Part shown: piece after piece, positions 101-15,874 of the stretch
Layout of the letters: each line of letters begins with the position of its first letter
Position numbering within the stretch: the stretch's first letter is position 1
Virus record (IMG/VR): IMGVR_UViG_2671180770_000015
Reading direction: 5' to 3' (one strand)
From: a virus
Lineage: Duplodnaviria; Heunggongvirae; Uroviricota; Caudoviricetes
Length of the DNA: 15,874 nucleotides
Program-made: the position numbers and the translations under genes
The notes under the pieces: model-generated
Told to the model about the DNA's origin: nothing
Seen by the model: the letters and a program-made list of their open reading frames with translations, nothing else
Databases searched by the model: none

Positions 101-600
101 TCAAACCTCAGCAAATAATCGAAGAACACATTAGCGGCTCAGCAGCAACCAGTGAGCGTCCTGGTTTTAACCGGTTGCTTGCTCGCCTGAAATGTGGTGA
201 TCAATTGATTGTGACAAAACTGGATCGCCTTGGTTGTAATGCAATGGATATCAGGAAAACAGTGGAACAACTGACCGAAACAGGTATCAGAGTGCATTGC
301 TTGGCATTGGGTGGCATTGACCTGACCAGTCCAACAGGAAAAATGATGATGCAAGTAATTTCAGCAGTCGCTGAATTTGAACGAGACCTTTTACTTGAAC
401 GCACTCATTCCGGGATAGTAAGAGCCCGCGGCGCAGGGAAACGCTTTGGTCGACCACCTGTGTTAAATGAAGAACAGAAACAGGTGGTATTCGAACGAAT
501 TAAGTCAGGTGTAAGTATAAGTGCCATTGCCCGGGAATTCAAAACCTCGCGGCAAACCATTTTAAGAGCCAAAGCAAAACTTCAGACACCTGACATATAA
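101..600 (+). pseudogene. Serine recombinase (PinQ/PinR-like resolvase/invertase family), 5'-truncated at the IS junction; catalytic-serine region missing
   Basis: Frame open from 61 to stop at 598-600, with no ATG/GTG (ORF track starts at TTG 175). Translation [13 protein letters not shown]...VTKLDRLG...[14 protein letters not shown]...GRPP plus C-terminal [18 protein letters not shown] matches the serine recombinase catalytic core and DNA-binding domain, but the N-terminal xRVSTxxQ motif is absent and replaced by IS-derived sequence. Confidence 0.85.
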
Positions 601-627
601 AAAATAATCTCGGTGTGAGATGCTTTA
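601..627. terminator. Bidirectional hairpin between convergent pin remnant and tfa
   Basis: ATCTC-ggtgt-GAGAT stem-loop at 607-621, flanked by an A-run upstream and T-rich sequence downstream. Confidence 0.4.
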
Positions 628-697
628 CGTGTTCCAAGCCCCCTTCCTTGCCGTAAATGGAAAGATACATCTAATTATAGAATTTATATGTTTTACC

Positions 698-1273
698 CTA
701 CGGCAGTGCTGGCCATTCAATATCCTGTGCAGTTGACGTATCAACACGGTTCAGCAATACCCGATACTTTTTCCATGCTTCCAGCAACGAGATTTCTTCC
801 TCCGTTGCAATTTCCAGATCTGCAGCATCCTGAAGCGGCGCAATATGCTCACTGGCTACCTGCATCAGGTTGTTTTTTGTTTCTTCCGCCTCCCGGATCC
901 GGAACAGTTTTTCTGCTTCCGTATCCTTCACCCAAGCTGTGCCGTTCCACTTCTGAAACTCCCCTTTCGGCGATAACCAGGTAACATTTTCCGGTAACGG
1001 ACCGAGTTCAGAAATAAATAACGCGTCGCCGGAAGCCACGTCATAGACGGTTTTTCCCCGATGATCTTCAACGAGATGCCACGATGCCTCATCACTGTTG
1101 AAAACAGCCACGAAGCCTGCCGGAATATCTGGCGGTGCAATATCGGTACTGTTTGCTGGCAGACCTGTATGAGGCGGAATATATGCGTCACCTTCACCAA
1201 TAAATTCATTAGTTCCGGCCAGCAGATTATAAATTTTTATGGTCCGTGCTTGTTCACTCATTCTGAATGCCAT
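698..1273 (-). CDS. tfa: Tail fibre assembly protein Tfa (lambda Tfa-like chaperone)
   Basis: 191-aa [42 protein letters not shown]..., near-identical to lambda Tfa as recalled. Its start codon overlaps the stf stop (TAATG at 1271-1275). Confidence 0.93.
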
Positions 1274-4236
1274 TATGCAAGCCTCACAATATAGTTAAAT
1301 GCGATGTTTTTGACGGTGTTTTCCGCGTTACCAGCAGCGTTAACGGTGATGGTGTGTCCATGTGAACCAATCGCAACGGAGTGCGTATGAGCACCAATAC
1401 TGACAGTATGTGCATGTGCGCCTGCGCTTGCAGCAGTGCCGGACAGCGAGTGGGTATGAGCACCATCTGATGATGTCTTCCCTGCATTACGAGTCTGGCC
1501 ACTACCGCTTGTTGTGCTCATAATCCCCGCGCTTAGATTTGAAATCGCGGTATAACCATTAGGGAAAATGCTCGTGTTCGTGCCACCAAATGCACCGGAA
1601 CTCTTGTGTTGGTGCGCACCGGCACTATTTGCAGTCCCGCTAATACTATGGGTATGCGCCCCGGTGTTATTCGTGGATTTGGTTCCGTAATCAAACGACG
1701 ATGTGTTTTTCGTCCCCAAATCCGTACTGGATGCGCTGGCGCTGTGGGTGTGCGATTTAATGCCGTCCTGTTCCTGAGACAATACGGCACGACCACTGGC
1801 GGGTTTGCCCTTAATCGTCCAGCCACGCATATCAGGGAGCACGCCTGACGGATAAGCGGCTGCAAGTTTCGGGTATGCAGATTTGTCAAAAGTCTGCCCC
1901 TGCATCAGGGCATAGCCAGACGGAACGGTATCTGATGGCCACGGGATTGGTGCGCCAGGCGGATAAAACTGCTCTGATGGCGTATAGAGTGAATAAACTG
2001 TACCGTCCGTTAACCCTTCCGGCTTATTAGCAGAATATGCTGGTGACGTATGAATCGTCACGCTGGCATTACTGGTATAATCCCATTGAATATTTACACC
2101 AGTCGCATAATTTCCGATTGCAACGTAAATATCGTAAGTATCACCAGATGTATTGACCCAGGCAAAATTTGTAAACCCTGTCGATGTGCGCTGCCATAAA
2201 GCACCAGTAATCCCCTTCGGATTACCATTACCTGCACGCAAAACAAGTTCAGATATACCTGCCTGTTGAGGTGACCCCACGTTAAATCCCGCGCCACCAA
2301 TCAACGTAATTGAAACAACAGAACTCGCCTGTGGCATGGTTACCGTTGCTAATTTGAACCAACCAGCACCACCACTGAATGACATTGTTGTTGAGTTAAG
2401 CGTACCAATATCTTTCGGCGTCAGTGTTATATCAGCTGAAAGCGCCTTACCATTCACCTTACGGGCAGAAGGTACCCGACCATTCGCATTATCATTAGCT
2501 GCTTTCACTGCTTTCGGTGTCGCAGCAAGCGTTTCAGATGCGCTGTTGGTTGCACTACTGAGCTGGACAATTCCTTTTTGTGTTGTCGTAGAGTCCTGAG
2601 CAGTATATTTCCCGTTAGCAAGGTCATAGGCTGCCTTTACCGACTTTGGCGTTGCCGCCAGCATTTCAGATGTGCTGTTGGTCGCGTTGCTAAGCTGAAC
2701 TATCCCTTTCTGTGCTGTCGTTGCATCCTGTGCGGTGTATTTCCCGTTAGCCAGCTCATACGCGGCCTTAACGGCTTTTGGCGTTGCCGCCAGTGACTCG
2801 GAAGTGCTGTTAGTCGCACTGCTGAGCTGTACTATCCCCTTTTTCGTCGTGCTCGCATCCTCAAGCGCCACGGCGGATGCAATATCCTCTGCCCGTTTTG
2901 CCGCTGTCTCGGCGCGCGTTGCCGCGGATTCCGCCGTACTTTTGCTCTGAGCTGCCGCCGTCGCACTGCCAGCTGCCTCTGTCGCCTTCGTGGATGCCGT
3001 CGTGGCGCTGCCCTTTGCTGCTGACGCCTGTCTGGTCGCCTCATCTTTTGAAGCAGACGCAGATGATGCCGATGACGCCGCCGAACTGGCGGACGATGCG
3101 GCAGCCGTTTTTGAGGATTCTGCGCTGGTTTCCGACGCTTTCGCGTTCGTCTCGGATGTCTTCGCTGCGGAAGCAGACCTCGCTGCTGCGCTGGCCTGTT
3201 CAGTGGCTTCGCCAGCCTTCGTTGTGGCTGTTGAAGCGGACGATGCGGCGCTTTCTGCCGATTTTCCGGCGGCGCTAGCACTGGCTGAGGCCTGCCCGGC
3301 ACTTGTTGACGCTGCACTGGCAGACGACGCAGCCGCTGTTTTTGAGCCTGCCGCAGCTGAGGCACTCTGTTCCGCTGCCGTTTCAGAAGACCTGGCGTTT
3401 GTCTCAGACGTCTTTGCCGCCTTCGCGGAATTGCCTGCCGCCGTTGCCGAGGAAGCGGCACTACTGGCGCTTGATGATGCGTTCGTTTCTGATGATTTCG
3501 CTGCCTCTTTTGAGGCCGCCGCATCCCGGGCTGAGGTGGCAGCTTCTGACGCCTTCGTGGTCGCGGCGGATGCAGAAGTAGCTGCTGATTGTTGTGACGC
3601 TGCCGCATTCGTTTCTGACGTTTTCGCCGCAGCGGCACTGGTAGCTGCCGCGCTTTTTGAGGACTCTGCAGCAGCAGCACTTTTCGATGCTTCACTGGCC
3701 TTTGTTGATGCCGTTCCTGCGCTGGAAGATGCTGACTGAGCAGATGATGCAGCCTGTCCGGCTGACGTGCTGGCGGCACGAGCTGAGCCTGCAGCATCGG
3801 TTGCATGAGTTGCCGCCTCACTGGCAGATGTGCTGGCATCACTGGCTGACTTCTTCGCGGCTGCCATGTTCTGTGCCACTGCGGACGCGTTACGCGCCAC
3901 CTCTTCCACCATCAGTTCAAAACGTCGCAGAGCCTCCGGACGGGCATCATCCTCCGTCATAGCACCGAGAAAATCATTCAGCGTACCGGGTCGGGAATCT
4001 TCATACACGGTGATGGTCCCGGCATGTGACGGCGGGAATCCTTCCACCAACAGAATAACGCTGTACTGACCGTACTCAACGTCCATGCTGTAACGCCCGG
4101 CTTCATCCGGATTTTCTGAGGCCAGCGTGTTCACCACCACCGCTGTGCTGTTACGTTTTGCTTTCAGCTGGATTGTGCAGTTCTGTACCGGTTTTCCTGT
4201 GCCGTCTTTCAGTACACCTGAAATCTTTACTGCCAT
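1273..4236 (-). CDS. stf: Side tail fibre protein Stf (lambda Stf-like), intact
   Basis: The ORF is 989 aa from a GTG at 4242; the likely true start is the ATG at 4236 ([26 protein letters not shown]...), matching the lambda Stf N-terminus. It has a long Ala/Ser-rich region, three tandem tail-fibre repeats, a His-rich GAHxH region and the C-terminus ...[11 protein letters not shown]. Confidence 0.93.
2476..2871 (-). repeat. Three tandem copies of a ~132-bp (44-aa) phage tail-fibre repeat inside stf
   Basis: Protein repeats ...KGIVQLS(S/N)ATNS(T/A)SE(S/M/T)LAATPK(A/S)VKAA... occur three times, with matching DNA periodicity around 2476-2871. Confidence 0.75.
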
Positions 4237-4247
4237 ATTCACCCCAC

Positions 4248-4273
4248 AAAAAAGCCCGCCTGAACAGGCGGGC
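4248..4273 (-). terminator. Rho-independent terminator immediately upstream of stf (downstream of the lom remnant)
   Basis: Minus-strand GCCCGCCTG-ttca-GGCGGGC followed by TTTTTTGTGGGG; the stem is 4254-4273 and the U-tract is the complement of the A-run at 4248-4253. Confidence 0.8.
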
Positions 4274-4300
4274 TGTCATAACACTGTGTTACCTGGCTAA

Positions 4301-4561
4301 TCAGAACTTATAACCGACACCCACGATGAAACCGTCAGTGCGCCAGTCACCACTGCCGGAGCCTTCATAAGCAATATCAATGGCCACGGATTCGGTCGGG
4401 TTAAACTGCACGCCAGCTCCCCACGCCAGAGACGTGTTGCTGTGGCGACCGTCATCACTTCCGGTCAGCACGTCGTGCGTTTTCCCCTTGTTGTCAGTTA
4501 CGCGGAGATAATCCCCGGAGAAAGTCGACACACGGCTGTAAGCCATACCGATATGCTCCAC
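4301..4561 (-). pseudogene. lom: Lom outer-membrane protein (Ail/Lom family), 3' fragment only (~80 C-terminal residues, no signal peptide)
   Basis: Translation ...SLAWGAGVQFNPTESVAIDIAYEGSGSGDWRTDGFIVGVGYKF matches the lambda Lom C-terminal beta-barrel strands; the N-terminal ~120 residues are absent. Confidence 0.85.
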
Positions 4562-5390
4562 TTAACCGACCACCATCACGGGCCTGCTGTTGCATAAAGT
4601 CCGCTGCCGCTTTTTTCCCAAGGTCATAAACCACCTTCAGGGCAGCCGGACCTATCTGCCCGTTCGTGCCATCGTTATTGATCTCGATGTTGTACTGCGG
4701 GGCAAACATCGCCATACCTGAACCACCAATATCCGCCACAACCCCCAGCTTACCGTCAGCACCACGACGCAGTGGCAGAATGGCTTCAGGTCCAGCTTCC
4801 CCCATCACACCCGCGCCTTTTGCAAAAGCAAAAAACGTCGGACGGTTAACCACCGTGCCACTGTAACGACTCAAATCAGCAGACTGATAAATCCCCCCAT
4901 TGGCATTCAGGGAAAGGCTGCTGAGATCAAATCCCAGTACACTGCCAATCCCTTTTATCGATTTCATCATGGTTGCCTGCGCCAGGATTTTCGCCATATC
5001 TGACAGCACCGAAGAGGTGAAGGATTTGAAGTTGAGTTTGCCGGTAGTGACAAAAGTTGCCAGGCCATTTCCCATGTTGCTGAAGGCTGACGAGAACACC
5101 TGTTCTGCTGTTCCTGCCGTATTGTCTGCATCCACGGTAAAATCCTGAAATGCACGCAGGACTCCGTTTTTCCAGTTACCCTGCACAACTTCAAGCTGTT
5201 GCCAGTAACGGCGATTCTCATTCAGTTGTCGGTTCAGGCTCTCCGTCAGCGCCTGCTCGGCCTTTCTGTAGTCATCCGTGTTATATGTCCCTTTCTGCTC
5301 ACTATCCCGCCTCAACTGCTCCAGCTGTTGCTGGTATTTCTGGCGAAGACTCAGTTGTACCTGATATCGCTGCCGCTGCTGATCACCCAT
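4494..5390 (-). pseudogene. Tail tape measure protein (lambda gpH-like), C-terminal ~280-residue remnant, reading through into the lom remnant
   Basis: Translation ...INNDGTNGQIGPAALKVVYDLGKKAAADFMQQQARDGG... matches the lambda gpH C-terminus. The native stop is missing and the frame runs a further ~17 codons into lom-derived DNA. A stop lies 9 nt upstream of the first Met, so the N-terminal ~550 residues are absent. Confidence 0.85.
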
Positions 5391-5548
5391 ACCTGGTTAT
5401 CTCCCGCAACGGTATTCCCGGCAACCTGCCGGGTGGCAACCGAGACCGCTTTCTGTGCCACACGGTTTATCGCCCATGCGCTGGCCTGTGGCACCATATG
5501 GGTATCAAGGCTGTTCAGATTGCGGATGGCATTCTCAAGCCCCTTCAT
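5351..5548 (-). pseudogene. Tail completion protein (lambda gpZ-like), N-terminal ~45-residue stub running out of frame into the tape measure remnant
   Basis: MKGLENAIRNLNSLDTHMVPQASAWAINRVAQ resembles the lambda gpZ N-terminus (MAIKGLEQAVENL...AMAINRVAS); similarity is lost after about residue 44 and the ORF terminates inside the tape-measure frame. Confidence 0.6.
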
Positions 5549-5559
5549 CCCACACCTCT

Positions 5560-5835
5560 TTACTCAATAAAGATCATTGGCTTACCATTAAAACGTTCAT
5601 GCCGTGTGACCGTCCATTGTTGTCCGTCATAAACAACGCGATCCCCGCGCCGTGGGCGGTATCCCGAAGAAAACACCACCAGAGAGACCGCAGGTCCGGA
5701 CAGAGCATTCAGCTCTGCCAGTGTTTCTCCCGGGATCACAGTCATATCGACATCATTAATCGAGGCTGTCTTTCCCATCTTTCTGACCGTGATAGCATCC
5801 ATACGCGCTGCCAGCCGGGAAAAGGGAGCAGACAT
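5560..5835 (-). CDS. Head-tail joining protein (lambda FII-like)
   Basis: 91-aa ORF; the pattern ...RRGDRVVYDGQQWTV... resembles lambda FII (...LRRGDTLTIGEENFWVDRV), and the gene sits between head and tail genes. Confidence 0.55.
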   Translation of the reverse strand: MSAPFSRLAARMDAITVRKMGKTASINDVDMTVIPGETLAELNALSGPAVSLVVFSSGYRPRRGDRVVYDGQQWTVTRHERFNGKPMIFIE

Positions 5836-6151
5836 TGAGTTTTACCGGCACTTCTTCTGCACTGGTTCCGGCATCTGCCCAGACAACCCCGACCAGCGGA
5901 TCAGAGCCGCTGTTAGTCAGCTGAACTTTTCCGGACTTCAGATAAACCTTCTTACCCGTTTTCATGTCATCCGTTTTCAGCTTAGGCAGCATAAACACAC
6001 CTTCGGTCATGCCGTCGCCTGTTTCACCCTGTGGAATATTGGTCAGCGCCACCGCAAAAACATCACCCACCTGCACCAGATCTCCGCTGCTGATGGCTGC
6101 ACTGGCAACAATCGCCACCGTTTTTCCTTCTTCTACAAAATTCTTTGCCAT
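5756..6151 (-). CDS. Phage head protein, DUF2190-like (putative capsid cement/decoration protein)
   Basis: The ORF track starts at 6196; the likely start is the ATG at 6151, preceded by GGAG (MAKNFVEEGKTVAIVASAAISSGDLVQVGDVFAVA...). Family assignment is from recalled sequence pattern and position immediately after the capsid gene. Confidence 0.5.
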   Translation of the reverse strand: MAKNFVEEGKTVAIVASAAISSGDLVQVGDVFAVALTNIPQGETGDGMTEGVFMLPKLKTDDMKTGKKVYLKSGKVQLTNSGSDPLVGVVWADAGTSAEEVPVKLNVCSLFPAGSAYGCYHGQKDGKDSLD

Positions 6152-6194
6152 AACTGTCTCCGCACAGCCCCGTTCAGGGGCTGATTTCAGGTAC

Positions 6195-6214
6195 AAAAAA
6201 AGCCCTTACGGGCC
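6195..6214 (-). terminator. Putative weak intrinsic terminator just downstream of the capsid gene
   Basis: Minus-strand GGCCCGTAAGGGC hairpin followed by seven T (complement of the A-run at 6195-6201). Confidence 0.4.
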
Positions 6215-6237
6215 ATCAGAGTTGTTGTCTGCGACGT

Positions 6238-8199
6238 TTACGCCGTACATTTCACCAGACCGCGGTGATCAACTGGCGCGACACCGGCGTCAATACGCAC
6301 TTTCGTTGTCACGCCATCCACACTGAAGCCCTCCATCTGATCAATATATGGCGTATCCACACCGTTGAGATAAGCCACTTCAATCGTATCGGAGCCTTTT
6401 GACGCAGCCAGGTAGAAGGTGGTCTGGCTGTTATCATCAAGACGAGGCTCTGCAATAACGGTCGCAAAATCTTTCACCGGGTTAATAATACCGGCGTTAA
6501 TGTCAGCCCCCTTGACACTTGAGGAGCGAATGACCTGGTTAGCAACAGACTCCATCGCCGTCGGTACCAGTACGAACGCAGGACGAATATTCAGATGACG
6601 CTCCCCCTCTTTCTGAACGCGCATCAACTGGCGGGCTTTATCCAGCGATGCCACGTCCATTGCAGCGCTCTCCAGTACGTTTGCATGTTTCGCTTTATCG
6701 AACAGACTTACATTATCTGTGGAGATTTTCGGGTTAGACGTCAGAATGGCATAAACCAGATCGGCAATAGTGGATTTCGCCGCACGGCCCAGTTTCATCG
6801 GGACATCGGTCAGCATATTCAGATCATCATTGATAATGGCCTGACGGGTGATACTGAACAGCTCGCCATAGGTCGCCAGTGCAATAGTGGCCTGTTTATC
6901 TCCGGTGGTGACGTATTTATATTCCGCCCCTTCACGCACCTGACGCAGAGCACTGAAGCCCCCCATACCCACACGATGGGCAATTTTAAAATCAGACAAC
7001 TGACCTTTCCGCGTCCACTGTTCATAGGTTTCAGGGGCATCTTCCCAGCCCTGCAGAATGGCTTTGTTCGCAACATCCAGCAGAATATTACCGAAGTCAG
7101 ACGTACTGTGTGTGAACGCCGCACCGACCATCTGCATCGGGTTATAACTGGAAACCCCAATACCCCGTTCAGTCAGTGACATACGGGCATATTCACGCAG
7201 GGTCATCCCGTTGTAGACATTATCACGTTCGGTTTTTTCAAATCCGGCACGCGCCATCAGCGCCTGGCGGATCCCGTCCCCCACAAAATTACCGTTACCG
7301 GCATAAATATGAGCCGGGGTATTTTTATTGGATGGCGTGGACTCGTGCCCCATCTCGTTCAACAGCTTTTCGCGGGCCTGCTCCAGCGAACATTCAGGAT
7401 CGGCAAGACACTGAGCCTGCAGCGACTGATAACGCCCGCCAAACATGGCAAACAGATCATTAATACCGTTTACACGCGCTTTTTGCTCTGCCAGGACCTG
7501 CGCACGGATGCTGTTTTCATCCACCACGGGTGCTGCTGCTGCCTGCACTGGCGTCCGGGAGGCTGCAGGTTCATCATCCTGTACGCGTGGAGCACTGTTG
7601 CGTGGCGGAGTAATCATGTTTCGAATGGATTCCGGCATCTTTTTAAATTCCTCTGTACGTTTTGACTGAATACATGCCATTGCCTTAACGGCTGGCGTTA
7701 CCTGATCAGCAAATCCATGTGCCAGACATTCGGCACCGGACATCCAGGTCTCATCCACCAGCATGGCAGCAATTTCATCGGTGGTTTTCCCGGTTTTCTG
7801 TGCATAAGCGGGTAACAGAACCGCCTCAACCTTATCGAGCAGGTCGGCATAGGTGCGCATGTCCTCCGCATCACCGCCCGTAAAGCCAAATGGTTTATGA
7901 ATCATCATGAAGGTGTTTTCCGGCATAATGACCGGGTTTCCCACCATCGCAATGACCGACGCCATTGACGCCGCCACACCGTCGACATAAACGGTAATGG
8001 ACGCACCATGTGTTTTCAGCGCATTAAAAATGGCGATGCCTTCAAAGACATCGCCACCCGGTGAATTAATATGGAGATTAATGTGGGTGATATCGCCCAG
8101 TGCATTCAGATCACTGATAAACTGCTTCGCTGTAACACCCCAGAAACCAATCTCGTCATAAATATAAATATCCGCGTCACTCTGGTGACCAGCCTGCAT
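6238..8199 (-). CDS. Prohead protease (ClpP/S14 family) fused to HK97-fold major capsid protein
   Basis: Single open frame 6238-8460. The N-terminal part has the ClpP-like motifs IYIYDEIGFWG and INSPGGDVFEGIAIFNAL; the C-terminal ~400 aa look like a major capsid protein. The likely start is the ATG at 8199 (MQAGHQSDADIYIY...); an alternative ATG at 8331 cannot be excluded. Confidence 0.8.
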   Translation of the reverse strand: MQAGHQSDADIYIYDEIGFWGVTAKQFISDLNALGDITHINLHINSPGGDVFEGIAIFNALKTHGASITVYVDGVAASMASVIAMVGNPVIMPENTFMMIHKPFGFTGGDAEDMRTYADLLDKVEAVLLPAYAQKTGKTTDEIAAMLVDETWMSGAECLAHGFADQVTPAVKAMACIQSKRTEEFKKMPESIRNMITPPRNSAPRVQDDEPAASRTPVQAAAAPVVDENSIRAQVLAEQKARVNGINDLFAMFGGRYQSLQAQCLADPECSLEQAREKLLNEMGHESTPSNKNTPAHIYAGNGNFVGDGIRQALMARAGFEKTERDNVYNGMTLREYARMSLTERGIGVSSYNPMQMVGAAFTHSTSDFGNILLDVANKAILQGWEDAPETYEQWTRKGQLSDFKIAHRVGMGGFSALRQVREGAEYKYVTTGDKQATIALATYGELFSITRQAIINDDLNMLTDVPMKLGRAAKSTIADLVYAILTSNPKISTDNVSLFDKAKHANVLESAAMDVASLDKARQLMRVQKEGERHLNIRPAFVLVPTAMESVANQVIRSSSVKGADINAGIINPVKDFATVIAEPRLDDNSQTTFYLAASKGSDTIEVAYLNGVDTPYIDQMEGFSVDGVTTKVRIDAGVAPVDHRGLVKCTA

Positions 8200-8335
8200 C
8201 CTGAACCAGGAATTATTCTTCGGACTGGTCGTCGGTGTGCTGCGGCTCCTGTCGTTTCGTTGCGGCACTGCTGCCTCCTTTATCACTGGCCGGATCGGTA
8301 TCAAATACCAGATCCAGCTTGCGGTTTTCATCAAT

Positions 8336-9154
8336 TTAGGCCTTGCGCCGACGTTTGACATCATCCGGATTACGACCACCAGCACGTACCCAGTCTGATT
8401 CTGTCGCCGCTCCACCACGAATCTGGATTTTCCAGGCCTCAGCCTCCTTAACAGGGTCAATCCACGGCATCACCGGTCCGGAATACACCGCGGTATACAG
8501 TGAAGAACGGTCAAGATCGCGGGGTAGCCTGATAACACCGGATGCCACAGCCTGTTTCAGCCAGGCACGATACATCGGGCGGGTGACGGCACCAATAAAC
8601 CAGTCCTGCAGGATCAGGTAGCCATCAGTAGACTCAACCAGTTCCTGACGCTGCGCGCTGTAAGTGCCGTTATAGTTGCGTGCCGTACTGGAAAAACTCA
8701 GACGACTGCCCGCCGCCACGGCACGCAACTGACCATTACGAAAAGTTTCAAGGTTAGGATTGGGACGATCCGACTTCACCATTCCGATTTCTTCGCCGGG
8801 TTTCAGATCGTCGTAAATAATGCCTGGCTGAATGGTAAGCTCGCGTTCATTCTCCTTGCTGCCATTACCATCCGGTTCATAGCTCTGCCCGTCGCCTTTC
8901 CGGATGTACATCCCCAGAGCAGCGGCGATCCTTGCTGCAGTCAGCTCAGAATCTTCATACTCTTTCAGAGCACTGAGGCGGATCAGCACACCGGACAACA
9001 AAGACGTCCCGCGCATCTGGTGCAGACGGCGAACAAATTTAAGATGCAGCATTCGCTCTGCATCCACTTCTTTGGTTTCCATCTGCCGCCCGGATACGGG
9101 ACGGCTTTTATACACCAGATATTTTTCGGGACACCCCCAGTCATCAACAAACAC
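8336..9154 (-). pseudogene. Portal protein (lambda gpB-like), C-terminal ~270 residues only
   Basis: Translation ...YSAQRQELVESTDGYLILQDWFIGAVTRPMYRAWLKQAVASGVIRLP... resembles the lambda B C-terminal half (...YSSARASANESWRYF...EEALLRGIIRPP); the N-terminal half is missing. Confidence 0.7.
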
Positions 9155-9186
9155 GCCCTGATTCAGCCTGTTGCTCTCATCACTGG

Positions 9187-10578
9187 TCAGCTGGCCGGAT
9201 CAATTCGCTGGCTCTCCCCGTCGCTGTCACCGCGCAATGACTGCGTGATGTTGTAACGATCAATAATCCAGCGTTCGCCACGGCTGCCATAGCCCGTTAC
9301 CTGAACCACAAAACGGCGATGACGTCCCGCCTGCACATCCACTGTCGCCACAAGGAAATTAACGCCATCCGGCACACTGCGGGAAGGAACTGGCTCTGCC
9401 CGCTGCTCAAGCAATTCACTTTTTCGTTGCTCCATGCTGGCGCGGGGAAGATAAGGTAATCCCCAGTCGGTATTGATAACCGTCTTGAGTGTCTCTTCAC
9501 TTCCGGTTGTCTCGTATTCCTGTTCTGCAGTAAGCAGTTTGTAAACGAGTTGCGAGAGTGTCTGATAAGCAGCTGCCGGACCCTCCATCCAGAATGACGC
9601 AATACGTGAACGCCGGGGATCACCATAACGACTGCCATCTGCATTGATGGATTCACCATCCCGTAACCAGACCCCACGTCCGTTCAGCTCGCGTTTTTGT
9701 TCAGGCAAAATCCGTCCTGAACAGGAAGGACACTGAATATAAGCCGCCTCACTTGCCAGCACAGGATCGGCAATATCACGGAAACCAGCAACCACATCGC
9801 CGCAGGGCTGAAAATACTCACCACAGTGTGGACAGGGCCAGTACCAGCGACGGCGATCGCCACGGTTATAGAGCGACAGGATCCCCGTGGTTGGTGGAGC
9901 CTCATGCGGTGAAGTCCGTCGCCATTTCACATCCTTCACATCCCTGCCGGGGGAACTCTCCACAAGCGTCATACCACTGGACATAAATGTGGTGGTACGT
10001 TTTGAGGCAAGAGAGAAGGCATCCCCCTCACCATCAATATCTTCCGGAAAACGGTCATAATCCGTCAGCGCCACGCATTTATAATCTGATGAAGACATGA
10101 TATTGACTGACGGCCAGCCGATTTTCAGGTAGTTGCCAGCAAGGAATGTTCTGTCATAAACGTTGTTGTCATTTTTGTTCGGACTCAGGCGACTGACCAC
10201 TTCCGGGCTGACGCGAAACGTTCTGGCGAGTCGTTTTTTGGAGTGTTCGCGGGCTTTTTCCTCCGTCATCTGAATGATCAGCATATCAGCAGGATCGCAA
10301 ATCACGTTGTAAATCACCCAGCCGTCAATCAGGCCGATAGTCTTGCCGGTTCGTGCCGGGCCAACAAATATCACTGCGTCGTATTCACGCGAGGCCAGGC
10401 AGTTCATCGGCTCAATAACATACGGTGCCACCAGCGGATCCCACGGGACTGAGTTCCCTGCCCCCATGGGCACCCGCATATACTGAGCAACGGCATCAGC
10501 AACCCGCATTCGTCTCGGTGCGCGAAGGATATAACCTGAATCGGTTCGTGCTGCCTTTGCGGTTTCCTGATTCAGCAT
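9187..10578 (-). pseudogene. Terminase large subunit (lambda gpA-like), truncated to 463 aa (lambda gpA is ~640 aa)
   Basis: WYWPCPHCGEYFQ matches the lambda gpA FHVACPHCGEEQY region, and the ORF ends at ...WIIDRYNIT..., equivalent to about gpA residue 480. The downstream sequence is portal-derived, not terminase. The start overlaps the terminase small subunit stop (ATGA). Confidence 0.8.
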
Positions 10579-11072
10579 TACTCCTCCTGCTGTAATTCCT
10601 CCTCATCATCCGCACCTGCTTCAGTCACCCGCAGGGCTATCTGATCGCGCAGATCATCAATAATGGACTGAACACGGCTCACAGCGGCAGGCTGCAGACC
10701 GCAGTCACGTTCCAGAATATCCGGTAATGTCTCCAGCACCTGCACGACCGCTTTTGCCCAGATGGCAAACTCCCGTCTGACATCACTGGCCGGAATGAGT
10801 TGCGCCGTTTCCTGTTCGAACTTAAGACGCTCACGTTCAGACTGATACCTGGCTTTGCGCTCATGCGCGTCCATTTCGCCTTCTGCAACCGGCGGTGGTA
10901 ATGCCAGAAATGCCGACACAATATCAACCACCCGATAAAGCTTGAGGTTGCTTTCATGCCCCCCTGCAACGGGTAGATTTTGCAGCCTTGCCGCAGCAGT
11001 CTGGCGATGTACACCTGACAGTGCCGCCAGTTGACTGATATTCAGCGTCAGATTTTTTAACTCTCGATCCAT
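10578..11072 (-). CDS. Terminase small subunit (Nu1-like DNA packaging protein with N-terminal HTH)
   Basis: 164-aa ORF with an N-terminal helix-turn-helix-like segment (LTLNISQLAALSGVHRQT), an acidic C-terminus, a GGAG ribosome-binding site and a position between cos and terminase large. Confidence 0.7.
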   Translation of the reverse strand: MDRELKNLTLNISQLAALSGVHRQTAAARLQNLPVAGGHESNLKLYRVVDIVSAFLALPPPVAEGEMDAHERKARYQSERERLKFEQETAQLIPASDVRREFAIWAKAVVQVLETLPDILERDCGLQPAAVSRVQSIIDDLRDQIALRVTEAGADDEEELQQEE

Positions 11073-11236
11073 ACCCGCTCCAGAATGTTTTAAACATGCA
11101 TCTTGCGAACGACTTTAGGCAAACGGTGTTAGTGATGAACAAAAAACAATCAAAATCGACACCACAAAAATAAAAATACTGTAATATCAATCTATTACAG
11201 TAGTGGTGATGACGGATGAAATTTCAAAAACTAGCC

Positions 11237-11300
11237 TTTTTCCGCGACGCTCCCGCCCCGTGGCAGGGGCCCCCACCGGGAGGACCCGACAGCCTGACAG
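11237..11300 (-). other. cos site (cosN/cosQ-like cohesive-end region)
   Basis: The minus-strand sequence GGGTCCTCCCGGTGGGGGCCCCTGCCACGGGGCGGGAGCGTCGCGG resembles lambda cosQ/cosN (GGGTCCTTTCCGGTGATCCGACAGGTTACGGGGCGGCGACCTCGCGG) and lies ~170 bp upstream of the terminase small start. Confidence 0.55.
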
Positions 11301-11438
11301 CCGTGACGAGCATCTGATACAGCGCTTTACATAATGGCATAGGAATAATTCAGAAGGACATCACAGCATGCCCACACAAATTAGTGTGAGTGTCCTGTTT
11401 CTTCCTACGCACAGGACTGACGAGCATGAGGGGAAAAT

Positions 11439-11606
11439 ATGCGAACCATAAATGCCTCATCTTCAGCAATGCAGCCGGCATCCGAACAGGACGATATTGT
11501 AAATTCACCTAATTACGAGGACATTGCAGTAGTTGAATTGCAGCTCTGTATTAGCCTGACAGTGACAGAATGCGACATTGACTCTGTCACAGGTGAAATA
11601 GTTTGA
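11439..11606 (+). CDS. Hypothetical small protein (55 aa), not in the ORF track
   Basis: ATG at 11439 preceded by GAGGGG at about 7 nt spacing; translation MRTINASSSAMQPASEQDDIVNSPNYEDIAVVELQLCISLTVTECDIDSVTGEIV; no family recognised. Confidence 0.3.
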   Translation: MRTINASSSAMQPASEQDDIVNSPNYEDIAVVELQLCISLTVTECDIDSVTGEIV

Positions 11607-11626
11607 ATGATTAGCAGTTATGGTGC

Positions 11627-11833
11627 TCAGTCAACCACCAGGGAATAATCCTTCGAATTCTTATCGTGCTTCACCAACGCTGCCTCAATTGCCCTGAATG
11701 CTTCCAGAGACACCTGATGTTCTATACATGCAATTACAACATCCGGGTAACTCATAGAAATGGTGCTATTAAGCATATTTTTTACACGAATCAGATCCAA
11801 CGAGAGTTCATCAGCAGATTGTTCTTTATTCAT
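11627..11833 (-). CDS. Small prophage protein, YbcW/YnfO-like (68 aa)
   Basis: 68-aa [60 protein letters not shown]...; recalled similarity to small proteins found beside Nu1 homologues in K-12 cryptic prophages. Confidence 0.5.
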
Positions 11834-12133
11834 TTTGTCGCTCCATGCGTTTGCTCGTCATCTAGCGGTTAAAATATTACTTCAAATCTTTCTGCATAAA
11901 AGAGGAAAAGTATGAAAGTTTGAGTACATCGACCTTACATACATCTGTCGGTTGCATATCCCTCCTGGATGCCAGCAAGGCTCAACTTTGTTACGCAATC
12001 AACACTATTCATTAAAAACAGGCTTAATATTTGACATAAATCATCAACAAAACACAAAGAGGTCAGACCAGATTGAAACAATAAACACGATAATGCAAAC
12101 TACGCGCCATCGTATCACATGGAAGGTTTGCCA

Positions 12134-12544
12134 ATGGCTCAGGCTGCCATTTTTAAAGAAATATTCGATCAAGTGCGTAAAGATTTAAACTGTGAATTAT
12201 TTTATTCTGAGCTAAAACGTCACAATGTCTCACTTTATATTTACTATTTAGCCACAGATAATATTCACATTGTGTTAGAAAACGACAACATAGTGTTAGT
12301 AAAAGGACTCAAAAAGGTTGTAAATGTTAAATTCTCCAGAAACAAACATCTTATAGAGACCTCCTATAATAAGTTGAAATCAAAAGAAATCACATTTCAA
12401 CAATACAGGGAAAATCTTGCTAAACCAGGAGTTTTCCGATGGGTTACAAATATCCAGGAACACCAAAGATATTACTATGCCTTTGATAACTCATTACTAT
12501 TTACTGAAAGCATCCAGAAAACTACACAGATCTTACTACGCTAA
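12134..12544 (+). CDS. ydfO: DUF1398-family prophage protein (YdfO/YbcV-like), 136 aa from the second Met
   Basis: The ORF track starts at 12119; the ATG at 12134 ([11 protein letters not shown]...) is preceded by GGAAGG. Assignment is from length and synteny with the Qin cspI-gnsB-ydfO cluster, not a sequence match I can verify. Confidence 0.45.
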
Positions 12545-12644
12545 ACCATAACGTCCGACTTCTCTCACTCCTGAGCCGGACTGCATTGGTTTAATAAAAA
12601 CCATCAACAATTGTGATTTAGATATTCGGAACCATTCAAATATA

Positions 12645-12685
12645 ACAAAACCCCGTAAAAACGAGGTTTATGGATAAATTTTATT
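12645..12685. terminator. Bidirectional hairpin between convergent ydfO-like and gnsB-like genes
   Basis: AACCCCG-taaaaa-CGAGGTT hairpin at 12649-12668 with T-rich flanks on both strands. Confidence 0.4.
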
Positions 12686-12868
12686 ATTGAATACATCAGA
12701 TTAAATTAATCTTGACATCATAGCTTTCAAGACCCGTCATTTTTTCCCGTGCGGTAAACTGAATACTGGTAACTTCTTTCCCGGTCTTTTTCTTAAGTTC
12801 AATAATTTTTTTGTTATATATTCAGAAATATCTGCTTCTGCTTTTGTTTTTAAGTCTTCAATATTCAT
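12686..12868 (-). pseudogene. gnsB: GnsA/GnsB-family small protein gene, disrupted by a frameshift in a homopolymer run
   Basis: Minus-strand start MNIEDLKTKAEADISEYITKK, then after a 7-base A-run (plus-strand T-run at 12806-12812) the GnsA/B-like sequence IIELKKKTGKEVTSIQFTAREKMTGLESYDVKINLI continues in another frame. The frame is restored by a single-base insertion in this run (8 A instead of 7). Confidence 0.6.
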
Positions 12869-13038
12869 CATTTCCTCTTTTAGTCTGTTATGACTTTCCA
12901 GTTAGACAGTAAGTCGATTATATGGTGCAAACGTGTAAAAGATAAGATGAAACATCGCAATAATCAACATACGATAGTCTAAATTTTACACAAACAGACA
13001 AAGAGAATTTCCCGAATTATCAATGCAATAGCATCAAA

Positions 13039-13230
13039 TCAACTCAAGAGCCTTATTGCTGCTTCCAGAATTTCTTCTGAAGTAACATGTCGATCCGCGG
13101 CTACATAAATGACTTTATGATCTCCGGTCAGAGATGGAAACCCTGCGGCCATTACAGTAAGGTGTGTTTTTTCGCCATTTGGATATTCACGCATGATGGT
13201 GTTAACTCCAGTCATCGCTGGCACTACCAC
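13039..13230 (-). CDS. Hypothetical protein (63-aa ORF; possibly a longer protein interrupted by a homopolymer frameshift)
   Basis: ORF MVVPAMTGVNTIMREYPNGEKTHLTVMAAGFPSLTGDHKVIYVAADRHVTSEEILEAAIRLLS from a GTG start. Upstream, an ATG at 13270 (MKKIIVFF) would join this frame if the 9-base A-run at 13246-13254 (on the + strand) were 8 bases. Confidence 0.4.
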   Translation of the reverse strand: MVVPAMTGVNTIMREYPNGEKTHLTVMAAGFPSLTGDHKVIYVAADRHVTSEEILEAAIRLLS

Positions 13231-13312
13231 TGCTGGTTCAGAGTTAAAAAAAAACTATGATTTTTTTCATGATGTTACCGTAGTATGTGAGTATCCATCG
13301 AATAGACACCAA

Positions 13313-13352
13313 GCAAAAAAGCTCCCGAAGGAGCCTTCATTTTCACTTTTTT
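13313..13352. terminator. Intrinsic terminator (bidirectional hairpin) downstream of the cold-shock gene
   Basis: GCTCC-cgaa-GGAGC at 13321-13334, flanked by AAAAAA (13315-13320) and T-rich sequence; gives a U-tract on the minus strand. Confidence 0.65.
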
Positions 13353-13541
13353 AAATCCAACGACAGACGGCTGGCATTTAAGTATTGTGAAATATTATCA
13401 AATGTAATCATCATTGATTTACAAAAGATACATTTTGCCCCGAAAGGATTCATGTCAGAAACATCAAAAGATGATGTTCTATACTGGGAACCATGACAAC
13501 ACGGGCATCTAAAGTGAATATGGTTTGTAATATTGTCTACC

Positions 13542-13754
13542 TCAAAGCGCCACTACATGAACAGCGGCAGGACCTTTAGGTCCGTTCTCAATACCAAATT
13601 CAACTTCCTGATTCTCAGTTAATGTTTTGAAATCGTTGCTCTGAATTGCTGAGAAATGGACAAACACATCTTTGCTGCCATCTTTCGGCGTGATGAAACC
13701 AAAACCTTTTTCAGGGTTAAACCATTTCACTAAACCAGTCATTTTGTTAGACAT
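13542..13754 (-). CDS. cspI: Cold-shock protein, CspA family (CspI-like)
   Basis: 70-aa [41 protein letters not shown]... with the RNP1/RNP2 cold-shock domain motifs; symbol assigned by synteny with the Qin lysis cassette. Confidence 0.9.
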
Positions 13755-13920
13755 AATTATTACCTTTTGAAGAAATTAGCCCTTGGGCAGAATGGTCCGA
13801 AAAAAAATATCAGAGAGAAAAACCAACAAGGAAATCTCAAGAGGTACAAATAATAAAATTATAACAATGACTGCTTCAGATAAATTTGTAACAAACCAGA
13901 ACACCATTAACGCATGATTA
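13755..13920 (-). promoter_or_regulatory. Probable long AT-rich 5' leader and promoter region of the cold-shock gene (extent uncertain)
   Basis: About 360 bp of AT-rich non-coding sequence lies between the Rz stop (14117) and the csp start (13754); CspA-family genes typically have long structured 5' UTRs. No promoter hexamers could be placed with confidence. Confidence 0.3.
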
Positions 13921-14116
13921 ACCACCCATAGCAAGGATTACTTTTGTAAAGAAAAACACAGCAATGAAAGAATAGCTTTATTTATTAATAAAACGTGTCA
14001 TTCTGATTAAGACCTTTTATCTTACCCTTAAGATTTCAGGAATTTTGGCTCATGGAAGAGTCCTTTTTATTTAAATTTTACATTCCGCGATGTAAATGTT
14101 CCGATTTAATATTACC

Positions 14117-15140
<1,024 letters not shown>

Positions 15141-15144
<4 letters not shown>

Positions 15145-15452
15145 AGATATTTATGATGAGGACGCTCGTGCTTATTGGCAGGATTTTCAATCTTAAAGGA
15201 GTACTGATGCTGCAGATAAGACTCAACTTTTTCTGACAATTTTTCTGCTACTTCCAGGAAGACTTGCCGGACGCTCCTTCTGGCTGCTGCCTCATAAAAC
15301 TCCAGCGCAGCTCCTTCAACACGGTCCATGGCGACATCCAGGTCAAAAATTTCACCGTCAAAGCGTTCTTTGTCCTGTAAGGCTACAGTTACCGTAACTT
15401 TATTCTCAAAATTACGGACTCCTTTCACAACCAGTTCATAGTCTTGAGTCAT
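15141..15452 (-). CDS. ydfR: YdfR-like protein (DUF1327), conserved between holin and endolysin in Qin-type lysis cassettes
   Basis: 103-aa ORF lying between holin and endolysin; its stop overlaps the endolysin start (ATGA). Identification is by position and length. Confidence 0.65.
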
Positions 15453-15456
15453 TGGA

Positions 15457-15672
15457 TTACTCTCCTCTCGCAGCCTTACGCCTGTCTTCTTTAATCTTGA
15501 AATAAAGATTTGTCAGATACGTCAGCAGGCCAAATACCAGGCTACCCAGCACACCTATTGCTGCCCACTGTGAGGGCGTGACTTTATCGAGCAGCTGTAA
15601 AAACCAGTAGCCAGCACTGCCTGCGGAGGTGCCGTAGGCAATGCCTGTTGAAATTTTGTCCATGGATTTCAT
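15457..15672 (-). CDS. essQ: Class II pinholin (S21-like) with dual-start motif
   Basis: The 71-aa form starts at the ATG at 15672, preceded by [38 protein letters not shown]... closely matches phage 21 S21 as recalled; the Met1-Lys-Ser-Met4 arrangement gives antiholin and holin starts. The upstream extension in the ORF track is unlikely to be translated. Confidence 0.85.
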
Positions 15673-15774
15673 AGCCTCACCTCCGCACGGAACGGATGGC
15701 ATAGTTATTATGTGTAGGCTTCCAGACACATCAATCAGAACCTTAATTGATATATATGCTGGAGACGATGCAAT

Positions 15775-15874
15775 GGCTTTGTTGAATAAATCGAACTTTT
15801 GCTGAGTTGAAGGATCAGATCACGCATCCTCCCGACAACACAGACCATTCCGTGGCAAAGCAAAAGTTCAGAAT
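15775..15874 (+). mobile_element. Partial IS903-group (IS5 family) insertion sequence, terminal 100 bp only; element body would continue beyond the right window edge
   Basis: Begins GGCTTTGTTGAATAAATCGAACTTTTGCTGAGTTGAAGGATCAGATCACGCATC..., which I recall as the IS903 end including its terminal inverted repeat; exact inverted copy of 1-100. Confidence 0.7.

Follow-up and report, generated by a model that had tools for sequence, protein, structure and literature searches.

The order R3-I1-R2-R1 has been described for lambda, phi80, 21 and Gifsy-1 (Feiss, PMC9026076). Among lambda-like phages cosQ is highly conserved, and differences between cohesive ends cluster at positions 7-12 (Feiss et al., PMC4669245); Gifsy-1, itself a lambda-like cos phage, has a cohesive end that differs from that of lambda at positions 8, 9 and 11 (PMC4669245). 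Initiation of packaging needs a matched cosB, and none of lambda, 21 and N15 initiates on the cosB of the other two; termination is not cosB-specific (PMC4669245). For the mEp213/LLS family, GGGCGGCGCGCT has been published as the putative cohesive end or cos (PMC12315714). Cos-bearing phage-inducible chromosomal islands of the EcCICFT073 type hijack the terminase of a lambda-like helper (PMC9026076).

In the 15,874-bp stretch of DNA analysed here (referred to as the window), positions 11130-11287 on the minus strand most probably constitute a sequence-intact lambda-type cohesive-end site, a reading to which we assign a probability of roughly 85%. The site belongs, by its sequence, to the class found in lambdoid phages with a DUF1441 small terminase, whose members include the mEp460, phi458, VT1-Sakai, Fels-1 and Gifsy types. 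As part of the same best explanation, and with the same confidence, an inverted repeat lying within the site is read as the sequence around the core of its candidate IHF site, I1. Judged by its elements, this is a real cos of a known kind and an ordinary, unsurprising feature of a lambdoid prophage. What the analysis provides is the placement, at base-pair resolution, of the packaging origin of a common E. coli/Shigella family of lambdoid prophages (the mEp460/phi458 type), which follows the published lambda/Gifsy-1 plan cosQ-cosN-I2-R3-I1-R2-R1.

The relevant genes of the window all lie on the minus strand. The small terminase subunit (10578-11072, minus strand, 164 aa) belongs to the DUF1441 family (Pfam PF07278, E = 5.6e-39), a protein annotated as small terminase in mEp460 and Gifsy-2, and its gene stands directly upstream of that for a gpA-type large subunit. 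This large subunit (9187-10578, minus strand, 463 aa) is truncated: it retains a GpA_ATPase domain (PF05876, E = 6.8e-72) and a partial GpA_nuclease domain (PF20454) that is cut at 116 of the 294 profile positions. Sequence searches with the DUF1441 protein detected no similarity to lambda gpNu1 and none to solved structures, while Foldseek matched its N-terminus weakly (E > 0.1) to a MerR/BldC-like winged helix. Pfam also called a portal fragment, a ClpP-protease/capsid fusion, a tape-measure fragment, and a tail fibre with its assembly protein, and, on the lysis-gene side of the cos, DUF1398, Rz-like and lysozyme genes.

The cosQ heptamer GGGTCCT, the packaging-termination signal, lies at 11281-11287 (minus strand) and is identical to that of lambda. 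It is separated from the predicted nick by 22 nt compared to 23 nt in lambda, and is kept in PhiR40_1, CP-1639, mEp043, Kp4865-4, VT1-Sakai and Tritos. At 11247-11258 (minus strand), lambda analogy together with the starts of the Tritos and cdtI records places a predicted cosN with a 12-nt 5′ cohesive end, GGGCGGGAGCGT; the nicks would fall at 11258/11259 on the minus strand and at 11246/11247 on the plus strand. The minus-strand order is GGGTCCT, 22 nt, CCACG/GGGCGGGAGCGT and then CGCGGAAAAAGGCTAGTTTTTG (slashes mark predicted nicks), and both the CG at the nick and the left half GGGCGG are present, the site reading ...CCACG/GGGCGGGAGCGT/CGCGG. There is a single copy of the composite GGGTCCT-N22-GGGCGG in the window, and none of 200 shuffles contained one. 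Compared to the lambda cohesive end GGGCGGCGACCT, GGGCGGGAGCGT differs at positions 7, 8, 9 and 11 only, that is, in the variable right half. A sequence-only reading of the window had proposed a G+C-rich stretch resembling lambda cosQ/cosN upstream of the small terminase gene. That stretch is present, and the alignment to lambda cos suggested as a check supports it, with 48 identical positions in 75 alignment columns; at the junction of the two lambda ends, the cosQ heptamer, the nick-flanking CG and bases 1-6 of the cohesive end are the same as in the window, and I2 is homologous. From the cohesive end to the ATG of the small terminase gene (11072) there are 175-186 bp; the ATG stands at +187 here compared to +191 in lambda. 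An 8-bp tandem unit, GGCTGTCA, adjoins cosQ at 11288-11303 (minus strand); it is present in two copies in the window and in three or four in Tritos and some IMG/VR prophages. A hairpin, GTCCTGT...ACAGGAC, found some 105 bp upstream of cosQ (11390-11417, minus strand), is conserved in relatives and carries a compensatory change in CP-1639 (GTCCGGT...ACCGGAC).

Two deposited phage records bear on the position of the nick. The linear Tritos record ends in ...CCCCTGCCACG (...CCACG) and starts with GGGCGGGAGCGTCGCGG, i.e. with GGGCGGGAGCGT, and its joined ends equal the window sequence across the cosN stretch; the cdtI record starts at the same base, with GGGCGGGAGCGT. That these ends coincide with the predicted nick agrees with the earlier proposal of a retained cos, with the qualification that the position of both termini may itself have been set by analogy with lambda. 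The published mEp213/LLS cohesive end, GGGCGGCGCGCT, is found at the equivalent position in mEp043 and Kp4865-4. Ayreon and mEp460_4F5 were left out when the ends were defined. The Ayreon record (MF807953) begins at its terminase gene and has a scrambled tail at cos, with a foreign-looking insert between ...CCACGGGG and the I2 segment. In the mEp460_4F5 record (LR595868) the first base lies 4 nt ahead of the predicted nick, and 3 nt are missing just past the cohesive end. Since several records of this family have been arbitrarily opened or misassembled at cos, the placement of the site can be used to orient them correctly.

Between cosN and cosB, an I2-like segment, CGCGGAAAAAGGCTAGTTTTTGAAATTTCATCCG (11213-11246, minus strand), aligns with lambda CGCGGGTTTTCGCTATTTATGAAAATTTTCC and is nearly invariant among 81 close relatives (π = 0.024). 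It contains a 10-bp palindrome, TGAAATTTCA (11217-11226), situated between cosN and R3, that is invariant in the same 81 sequences. The cosB region itself holds three putative small-terminase sites matching TCRWCACYA: an R3-like site, TCATCACCA (11204-11212, minus strand, in the direction of the terminase gene); an R2-like site, TCGACACCA (11156-11164, plus strand), inverted relative to R3 and R1; and an R1-like site, TCATCACTA (11130-11138, minus strand). These three copies within 83 bp, in the orientation -, +, -, make up three of the four matches in the window, a count that is illustrative and an enrichment that is partly circular, as the pattern was built from the three sites themselves. 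For this reason the three-site cosB call rests mainly on the same layout being found in nine relatives. The comparison covered the 400 bp upstream of the DUF1441 terminase genes of PhiR40_1, Chris1, CP-1639, mEp043, Flotzy, Kp4865-4, VT1-Sakai, Gifsy-2, Fels-1 and Pmp14, and the common plan is a TCATCA-type element about 45 bp past the nick, an A+T-rich interval, an inverted copy, and a direct third copy about 25 bp further on. A TCATCATCATC-type element occupies the place of R3 in VT1-Sakai, Fels-1, mEp043, Chris1 and Pmp14; in relatives, inverted GATGATGA or GTGTCGAA elements occupy that of R2, and GTTCATCA or GTTCGACA elements are kept at that of R1. Tritos and cdtI have cosQ, cosN and I2 in common with the window and diverge from it exactly at the start of cosB, and their small terminases are only 41% identical to that of the window, which is the modular link expected between cosB and small-terminase specificity.

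In lambda, the IHF site I1 fills the slot that separates R3 from R2. Here that slot holds a candidate IHF core, TATCAATCTATTA (11185-11197, plus strand), the sole exact match to the consensus WATCAANNNNTTR in the 15,874-bp window, where 0.76 such matches would be expected by chance. With respect to the terminase gene, the core lies on the strand that also carries I1 in lambda. The core here is a perfect match to the consensus at +62 from the nick, whereas that of lambda carries one mismatch and lies at +79. An A-tract, AAAAATAAAAA (11166-11176, plus strand), is visible 8 bp 5′ of the core and is nearly invariant in the 81 relatives; core and A-tract together form what we take to be the arrangement of strong A-tract-assisted IHF sites such as H' of lambda attP. 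Cores with zero or one mismatch were located at +59 to +64 from the nick and on the same strand in 11 of 13 aligned relatives, with exact cores in Tritos, CP-1639 and mEp460_4F5. The exceptions were Pmp14, without any core, and Gifsy-2, where the only one lies at +76 on the opposite strand. In Chris1 an exact match on the same strand, TATCAACAAGTTA, was read by eye and not anchored by script. Hardly any variation is seen among the 81 close relatives at WATCAA, at TTR or in the T-run, and two of the four N positions of the core (11192 and 11193) are the most variable columns of all.

An inverted repeat surrounds this core. The sequence-only reading had reported a perfect 9-bp repeat, ACTGTAATA-tcaatc-TATTACAGT, at 11178-11201, which is exactly as described; the repeat extends by one further pair to perfect 10-bp arms, TACTGTAATA-N6-TATTACAGTA, at 11177-11202 (arms 11177-11186 and 11193-11202). 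Whether such a repeat is unusual depends on the frame of reference. Window-wide, perfect 10-bp-arm repeats with a 3-10 nt loop averaged 0.2 per shuffle, at least one being found in 14.5% of shuffles, and when the 174-bp cosB interval (from cosN to the terminase gene) was shuffled by itself, only 0.5% of shuffles had an arm of at least 9 bp. A single-stranded DNA fold of the region gave z = -5.4 relative to shuffles.

The symmetry was compared across 80 prophage loci that encode a small terminase 99% identical to that of the window. All ten pairs are kept in only 5 of 49 distinct haplotypes, most retaining 7-9 pairs, and the changes are mostly one-sided; for this reason symmetry does not appear to be the selected feature. 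The viable phage phi458 carries a 12-bp perfect palindrome and the equally viable mEp460 keeps 8 of 10 pairs, and perfect palindromes come in two forms, one with T-A and the other with C-G as outer pairs. CP-1639, which has the same R-site type, keeps its IHF core (TATCAACAACTTA) and lacks the right arm. Most relatives of the DUF1441 type have an IHF-like core at the same distance and in the same orientation without the palindrome, and no palindrome was found at the I1 position in the VT1-Sakai family; only the mEp460/phi458 lineage has a perfect palindrome around I1. The earlier suggestion that the palindrome is a cosB-type terminase- or IHF-binding element was thus correct in part: the repeat lies within cosB and holds a candidate IHF site, but its symmetry, absent from other cosB types and complete in so few haplotypes, is not what is conserved. 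The palindrome probably marks the IHF site of cosB, and the comparison points to the IHF core, the A-tract and their spacing as the selected features, with perfect symmetry dispensable and lineage-specific.

The interval is also exceptionally variable. Nucleotide diversity over the 39 bp between R3 and R2 (11165-11203) is 0.109 in the 81 close relatives, compared to 0.014 at third codon positions of the small terminase gene and 0.016-0.024 in the remaining cos, so that diversity beside the IHF core is 5-8 times that of the surrounding DNA. Several columns of the interval carry three or four alleles, and more allele combinations occur than could arise without homoplasy. In the VT1-Sakai family, too, a conserved IHF-like core is bordered on both sides by hypervariable patches, and no hypervariable island was found in lambda-Nu1 cos sampled in the same way. 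These hypervariable flanks are a small, unexplained observation. We offer only as a speculation that, where the small terminase is a DUF1441 protein, these flanks of the cos site truly are a hot spot of hypermutation or diversification. The R3/R2 and inner quasi-palindromes are nested and might promote mutagenesis by template switching; alternatively, selection could act on how the DNA is bent or on a second, hairpin-related function. If this speculation were true, cosB would be an unexpected place of rapid, localised evolution.

What, then, does the symmetry itself represent? The view we lean towards, which is compatible with the main explanation, is that it has no function of its own: the spacer around the IHF core is A+T-rich and evolves fast, and a perfect repeat would be one state that it reached by chance or through mutation (template switching, for example). 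The scarcity of fully paired haplotypes, the homoplasy of the diversity hot spot and the 14.5% of window-wide shuffles containing such a repeat all favour it; it accounts less well for the 7-10 of ten pairs held in nearly all close relatives, and the two perfect versions with different outer pairs suggest some pressure or bias towards symmetry. The palindrome could instead be the site of a dimeric protein, either the DUF1441 small terminase or another phage or host regulator, acting on CTGTAAT and ATTACAG, with the IHF match being incidental. The 81 close relatives keep these arms fairly well (88-100% per column, or 71-81 of 81 sequences), the perfect version is longer in phi458, and a repeat this good is rare among cosB-interval shuffles (0.5%). 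However, CP-1639, with a 64%-identical small terminase and the same R-site type, has the IHF core and no right arm; other DUF1441 cosB types lack the palindrome at this place; mEp460 is viable with two pairs broken, arm changes being mostly one-sided; and about 18 bp separate the centres of the half-sites, a distance that does not correspond to whole turns of the helix. We consider a dimer site improbable on these grounds. The arms are better conserved than a pure spacer needs, and a second, protein-binding role for them keeps a low weight.

Slightly less probable still is that the hairpin and the T-run which follows it on the terminase-sense strand (TACTGTAATA-N6-TATTACAGTA-TTTTTATTTTT) act as a weak intrinsic terminator or pause that bars non-antiterminated transcription from the packaging genes. 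The sense-strand RNA folds at -20.3 kcal/mol (z = -5.0) with its stem directly before UUUUUAUUUUU; in the commonest haplotype, that of phi458, the stem is 12 bp long with four G-C pairs and is followed by UUUUAUUUUU; and when G-U pairs are counted, pairing is retained in 92% of inner-stem cells on the sense strand. Yet a promoter and terminator scan of 10950-11700 gave nothing overlapping the palindrome, the stem in the window has only two G-C pairs, other cosB families lack a hairpin with T-run at this place, and the T-run is equally well explained as the A-tract of the IHF site. Covariation was also weak: a pair count over 47 haplotypes yielded three compensatory cells, with scores reached by 10-54 of 500 shuffles, within the range that the tool returns for related sequences without structure. 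Changes preserving a G-U pair on the sense strand affected 5 of 8 A positions compared to 2 of 8 T positions, an excess judged non-significant. The arms also resemble the SOS box of E. coli, whose consensus is TACTGT(AT)4ACAGTA. A LexA box made of the perfect half-sites TACTGTA...TACAGTA would draw on CTGT at 11179-11182 and ACAG at 11197-11200, both with A/T-rich flanks, but the spacing CTGT-N14-ACAG is 6 bp longer than the canonical CTGT-N8-ACAG and no promoter-like site overlaps it; we therefore rejected this candidate as almost certainly wrong.

Taking the repeat as the surroundings of I1 within a DUF1441-type cosB, the site can be set against its closest counterparts. Like lambda, it has three R-type repeats of which the middle one is inverted, an IHF core between R3 and R2 on the strand of I1, and a gpA-type large terminase. 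It differs from lambda in its R sequence (TCRWCACYA compared to the CGTTTCC type), in the R3-R2 distance (about 48 bp compared to about 61 bp), in its DUF1441 small terminase, which is without detectable similarity to gpNu1, and in the hypervariable flanks of I1, which lambda-type prophages lack. The Gifsy-1/Fels-1/VT1-Sakai/mEp213-type cos is served by a DUF1441 small terminase and accompanied by fused ClpP-capsid head genes. The window shares with it the cos layout, the TCATCA-type family of R sites and similar right-half variants of the cohesive end. The small terminase of the window is 39.9-57% identical to those of Fels-1, VT1-Sakai and mEp213 and 46.8% identical to that of Gifsy-2 (Gifsy-1 lay outside the searched collection). 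The R-site variant there is TCATCATCA compared to TCATCACCA here, which suggests a different packaging specificity. Closest are mEp460, phi458 and mEp460_4F5: their small terminases are 98.8-99.4% identical to that of the window, cosQ, cosN, I2, R3, R2 and R1 are essentially identical, and the palindrome and IHF element are in the same place. They differ by a few substitutions at hypervariable positions and in the cosQ-cosN spacer, and in that the cos of the window sits in a deleted prophage without functional large terminase, portal or tail genes. Comparison with mEp460 and phi458, working phages with almost the same cosQ, cosN, I2 and cosB, is what leads us to regard the site as intact.

The decay of the surrounding prophage is extensive. 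Window positions 101-15699 match the best complete E. coli genomes at 98.6% identity, but the match is spread there across 27.8 kb, and these genomes are without the three deletions of the window. An exact search for the junction of IS and prophage, run on one genome per species, gave no hit. In E. coli 19SZHZ886Rt the matching prophage lies at ydfJ/pinQ...rzpQ/rrrQ/essD, the Qin locus, and pairwise comparison with this intact prophage placed the three deletion junctions at about 4543-4549, 5391-5393 and 9189 of the window. A 6.2-kb deletion removed the region from lom to the tape-measure gene, a 4.5-kb deletion removed tail genes, and a 1,454-bp deletion removed the C-terminus of the large terminase, a small gene and the N-terminus of the portal protein, fusing the large terminase to a portal fragment. 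Positions 1-100 and 15775-15874 are perfect inverted copies of a 100-nt terminus of an IS5-family (IS903-like) element. The 15.7-kb remnant thus lies between two inverted IS copies in a composite-transposon-like arrangement, with only 100 nt of each IS inside the window. Together, the IS5-family ends, the deletions and the truncated terminase identify the element as a defective, IS-flanked remnant that cannot make terminase. Having lost the nuclease domain of the large terminase, the resident prophage is predicted to be unable to cut its own cos.

By analogy with lambda, a dimer of the matching small terminase would bind R3 and the inverted R2 of cosB, and host IHF, bound to TATCAATCTATTA and the A-tract between them, would bend the DNA and bring the two sites together. 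The gpA-type large subunit would thereby be set on cosN, and its staggered nicks would leave the 12-nt end GGGCGGGAGCGT; packaging would then proceed one way, toward the terminase and head genes, with cosQ acting at termination. The sequences themselves show the anatomy of the site, its conservation and the termini of the phage records; protein binding, the nick positions and the activity of this particular cos are all projected from that model. As the prophage lacks the large-terminase nuclease domain, the site would be usable only in trans, by a helper of the same cosB specificity, and the helpers able to start here should be those of the mEp460/phi458 type only. Under the rules of lambda, packaging runs one way from cosN through cosB and the terminase genes and ends at a second cosQ-cosN in the same orientation. 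In the present orientation packaging would be directed toward window position 1 and on past the IS into the chromosome, and would end at a second cosQ-cosN of the same orientation about a genome length away; the window holds a single copy of cos. Upstream of the site, on the lysis-gene side, 4.5 kb separate cos from the right-hand IS, and packaging from this cos would leave them out. The earlier proposal that the whole IS-bracketed unit is a potential substrate for helper-phage transduction was too broad, because packaging from cos is one-way and requires a second cos, only one is present in the window, and a matching helper is needed. As termination is not cosB-specific, this cos could also end packaging begun at another lambda-like prophage located upstream. 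A sequence-intact cos in a dead prophage may thus still start packaging by a matching helper, or terminate packaging from another lambda-like cos, and its relevance to transduction would concern the neighbouring chromosome rather than the whole remnant.

EcCICFT073-type islands resemble the remnant in being small (about 15.7 kb here) and non-autonomous, with a lambda-like cos and dependence on a helper terminase. They differ from it in that the window contains only the decayed late genes of a Qin-locus prophage, and no integrase, replication or Rpp-type redirecting genes were seen in the window or in its annotated relative. A phage-inducible chromosomal island was rejected as an identity for the element, whose genes are only phage late, lysis and moron genes and whose cosB is the ordinary phage cosB of mEp460/phi458 and not an island-specific one. 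Rfam returned no family in the cos region; elsewhere in the window, two matches scored above the gathering threshold, IS009 at 732-930 (minus strand) within the tail-fibre-assembly gene, and the cspA thermoregulator leader at 13515-13900 (minus strand), upstream of a cspI-like cold-shock gene.
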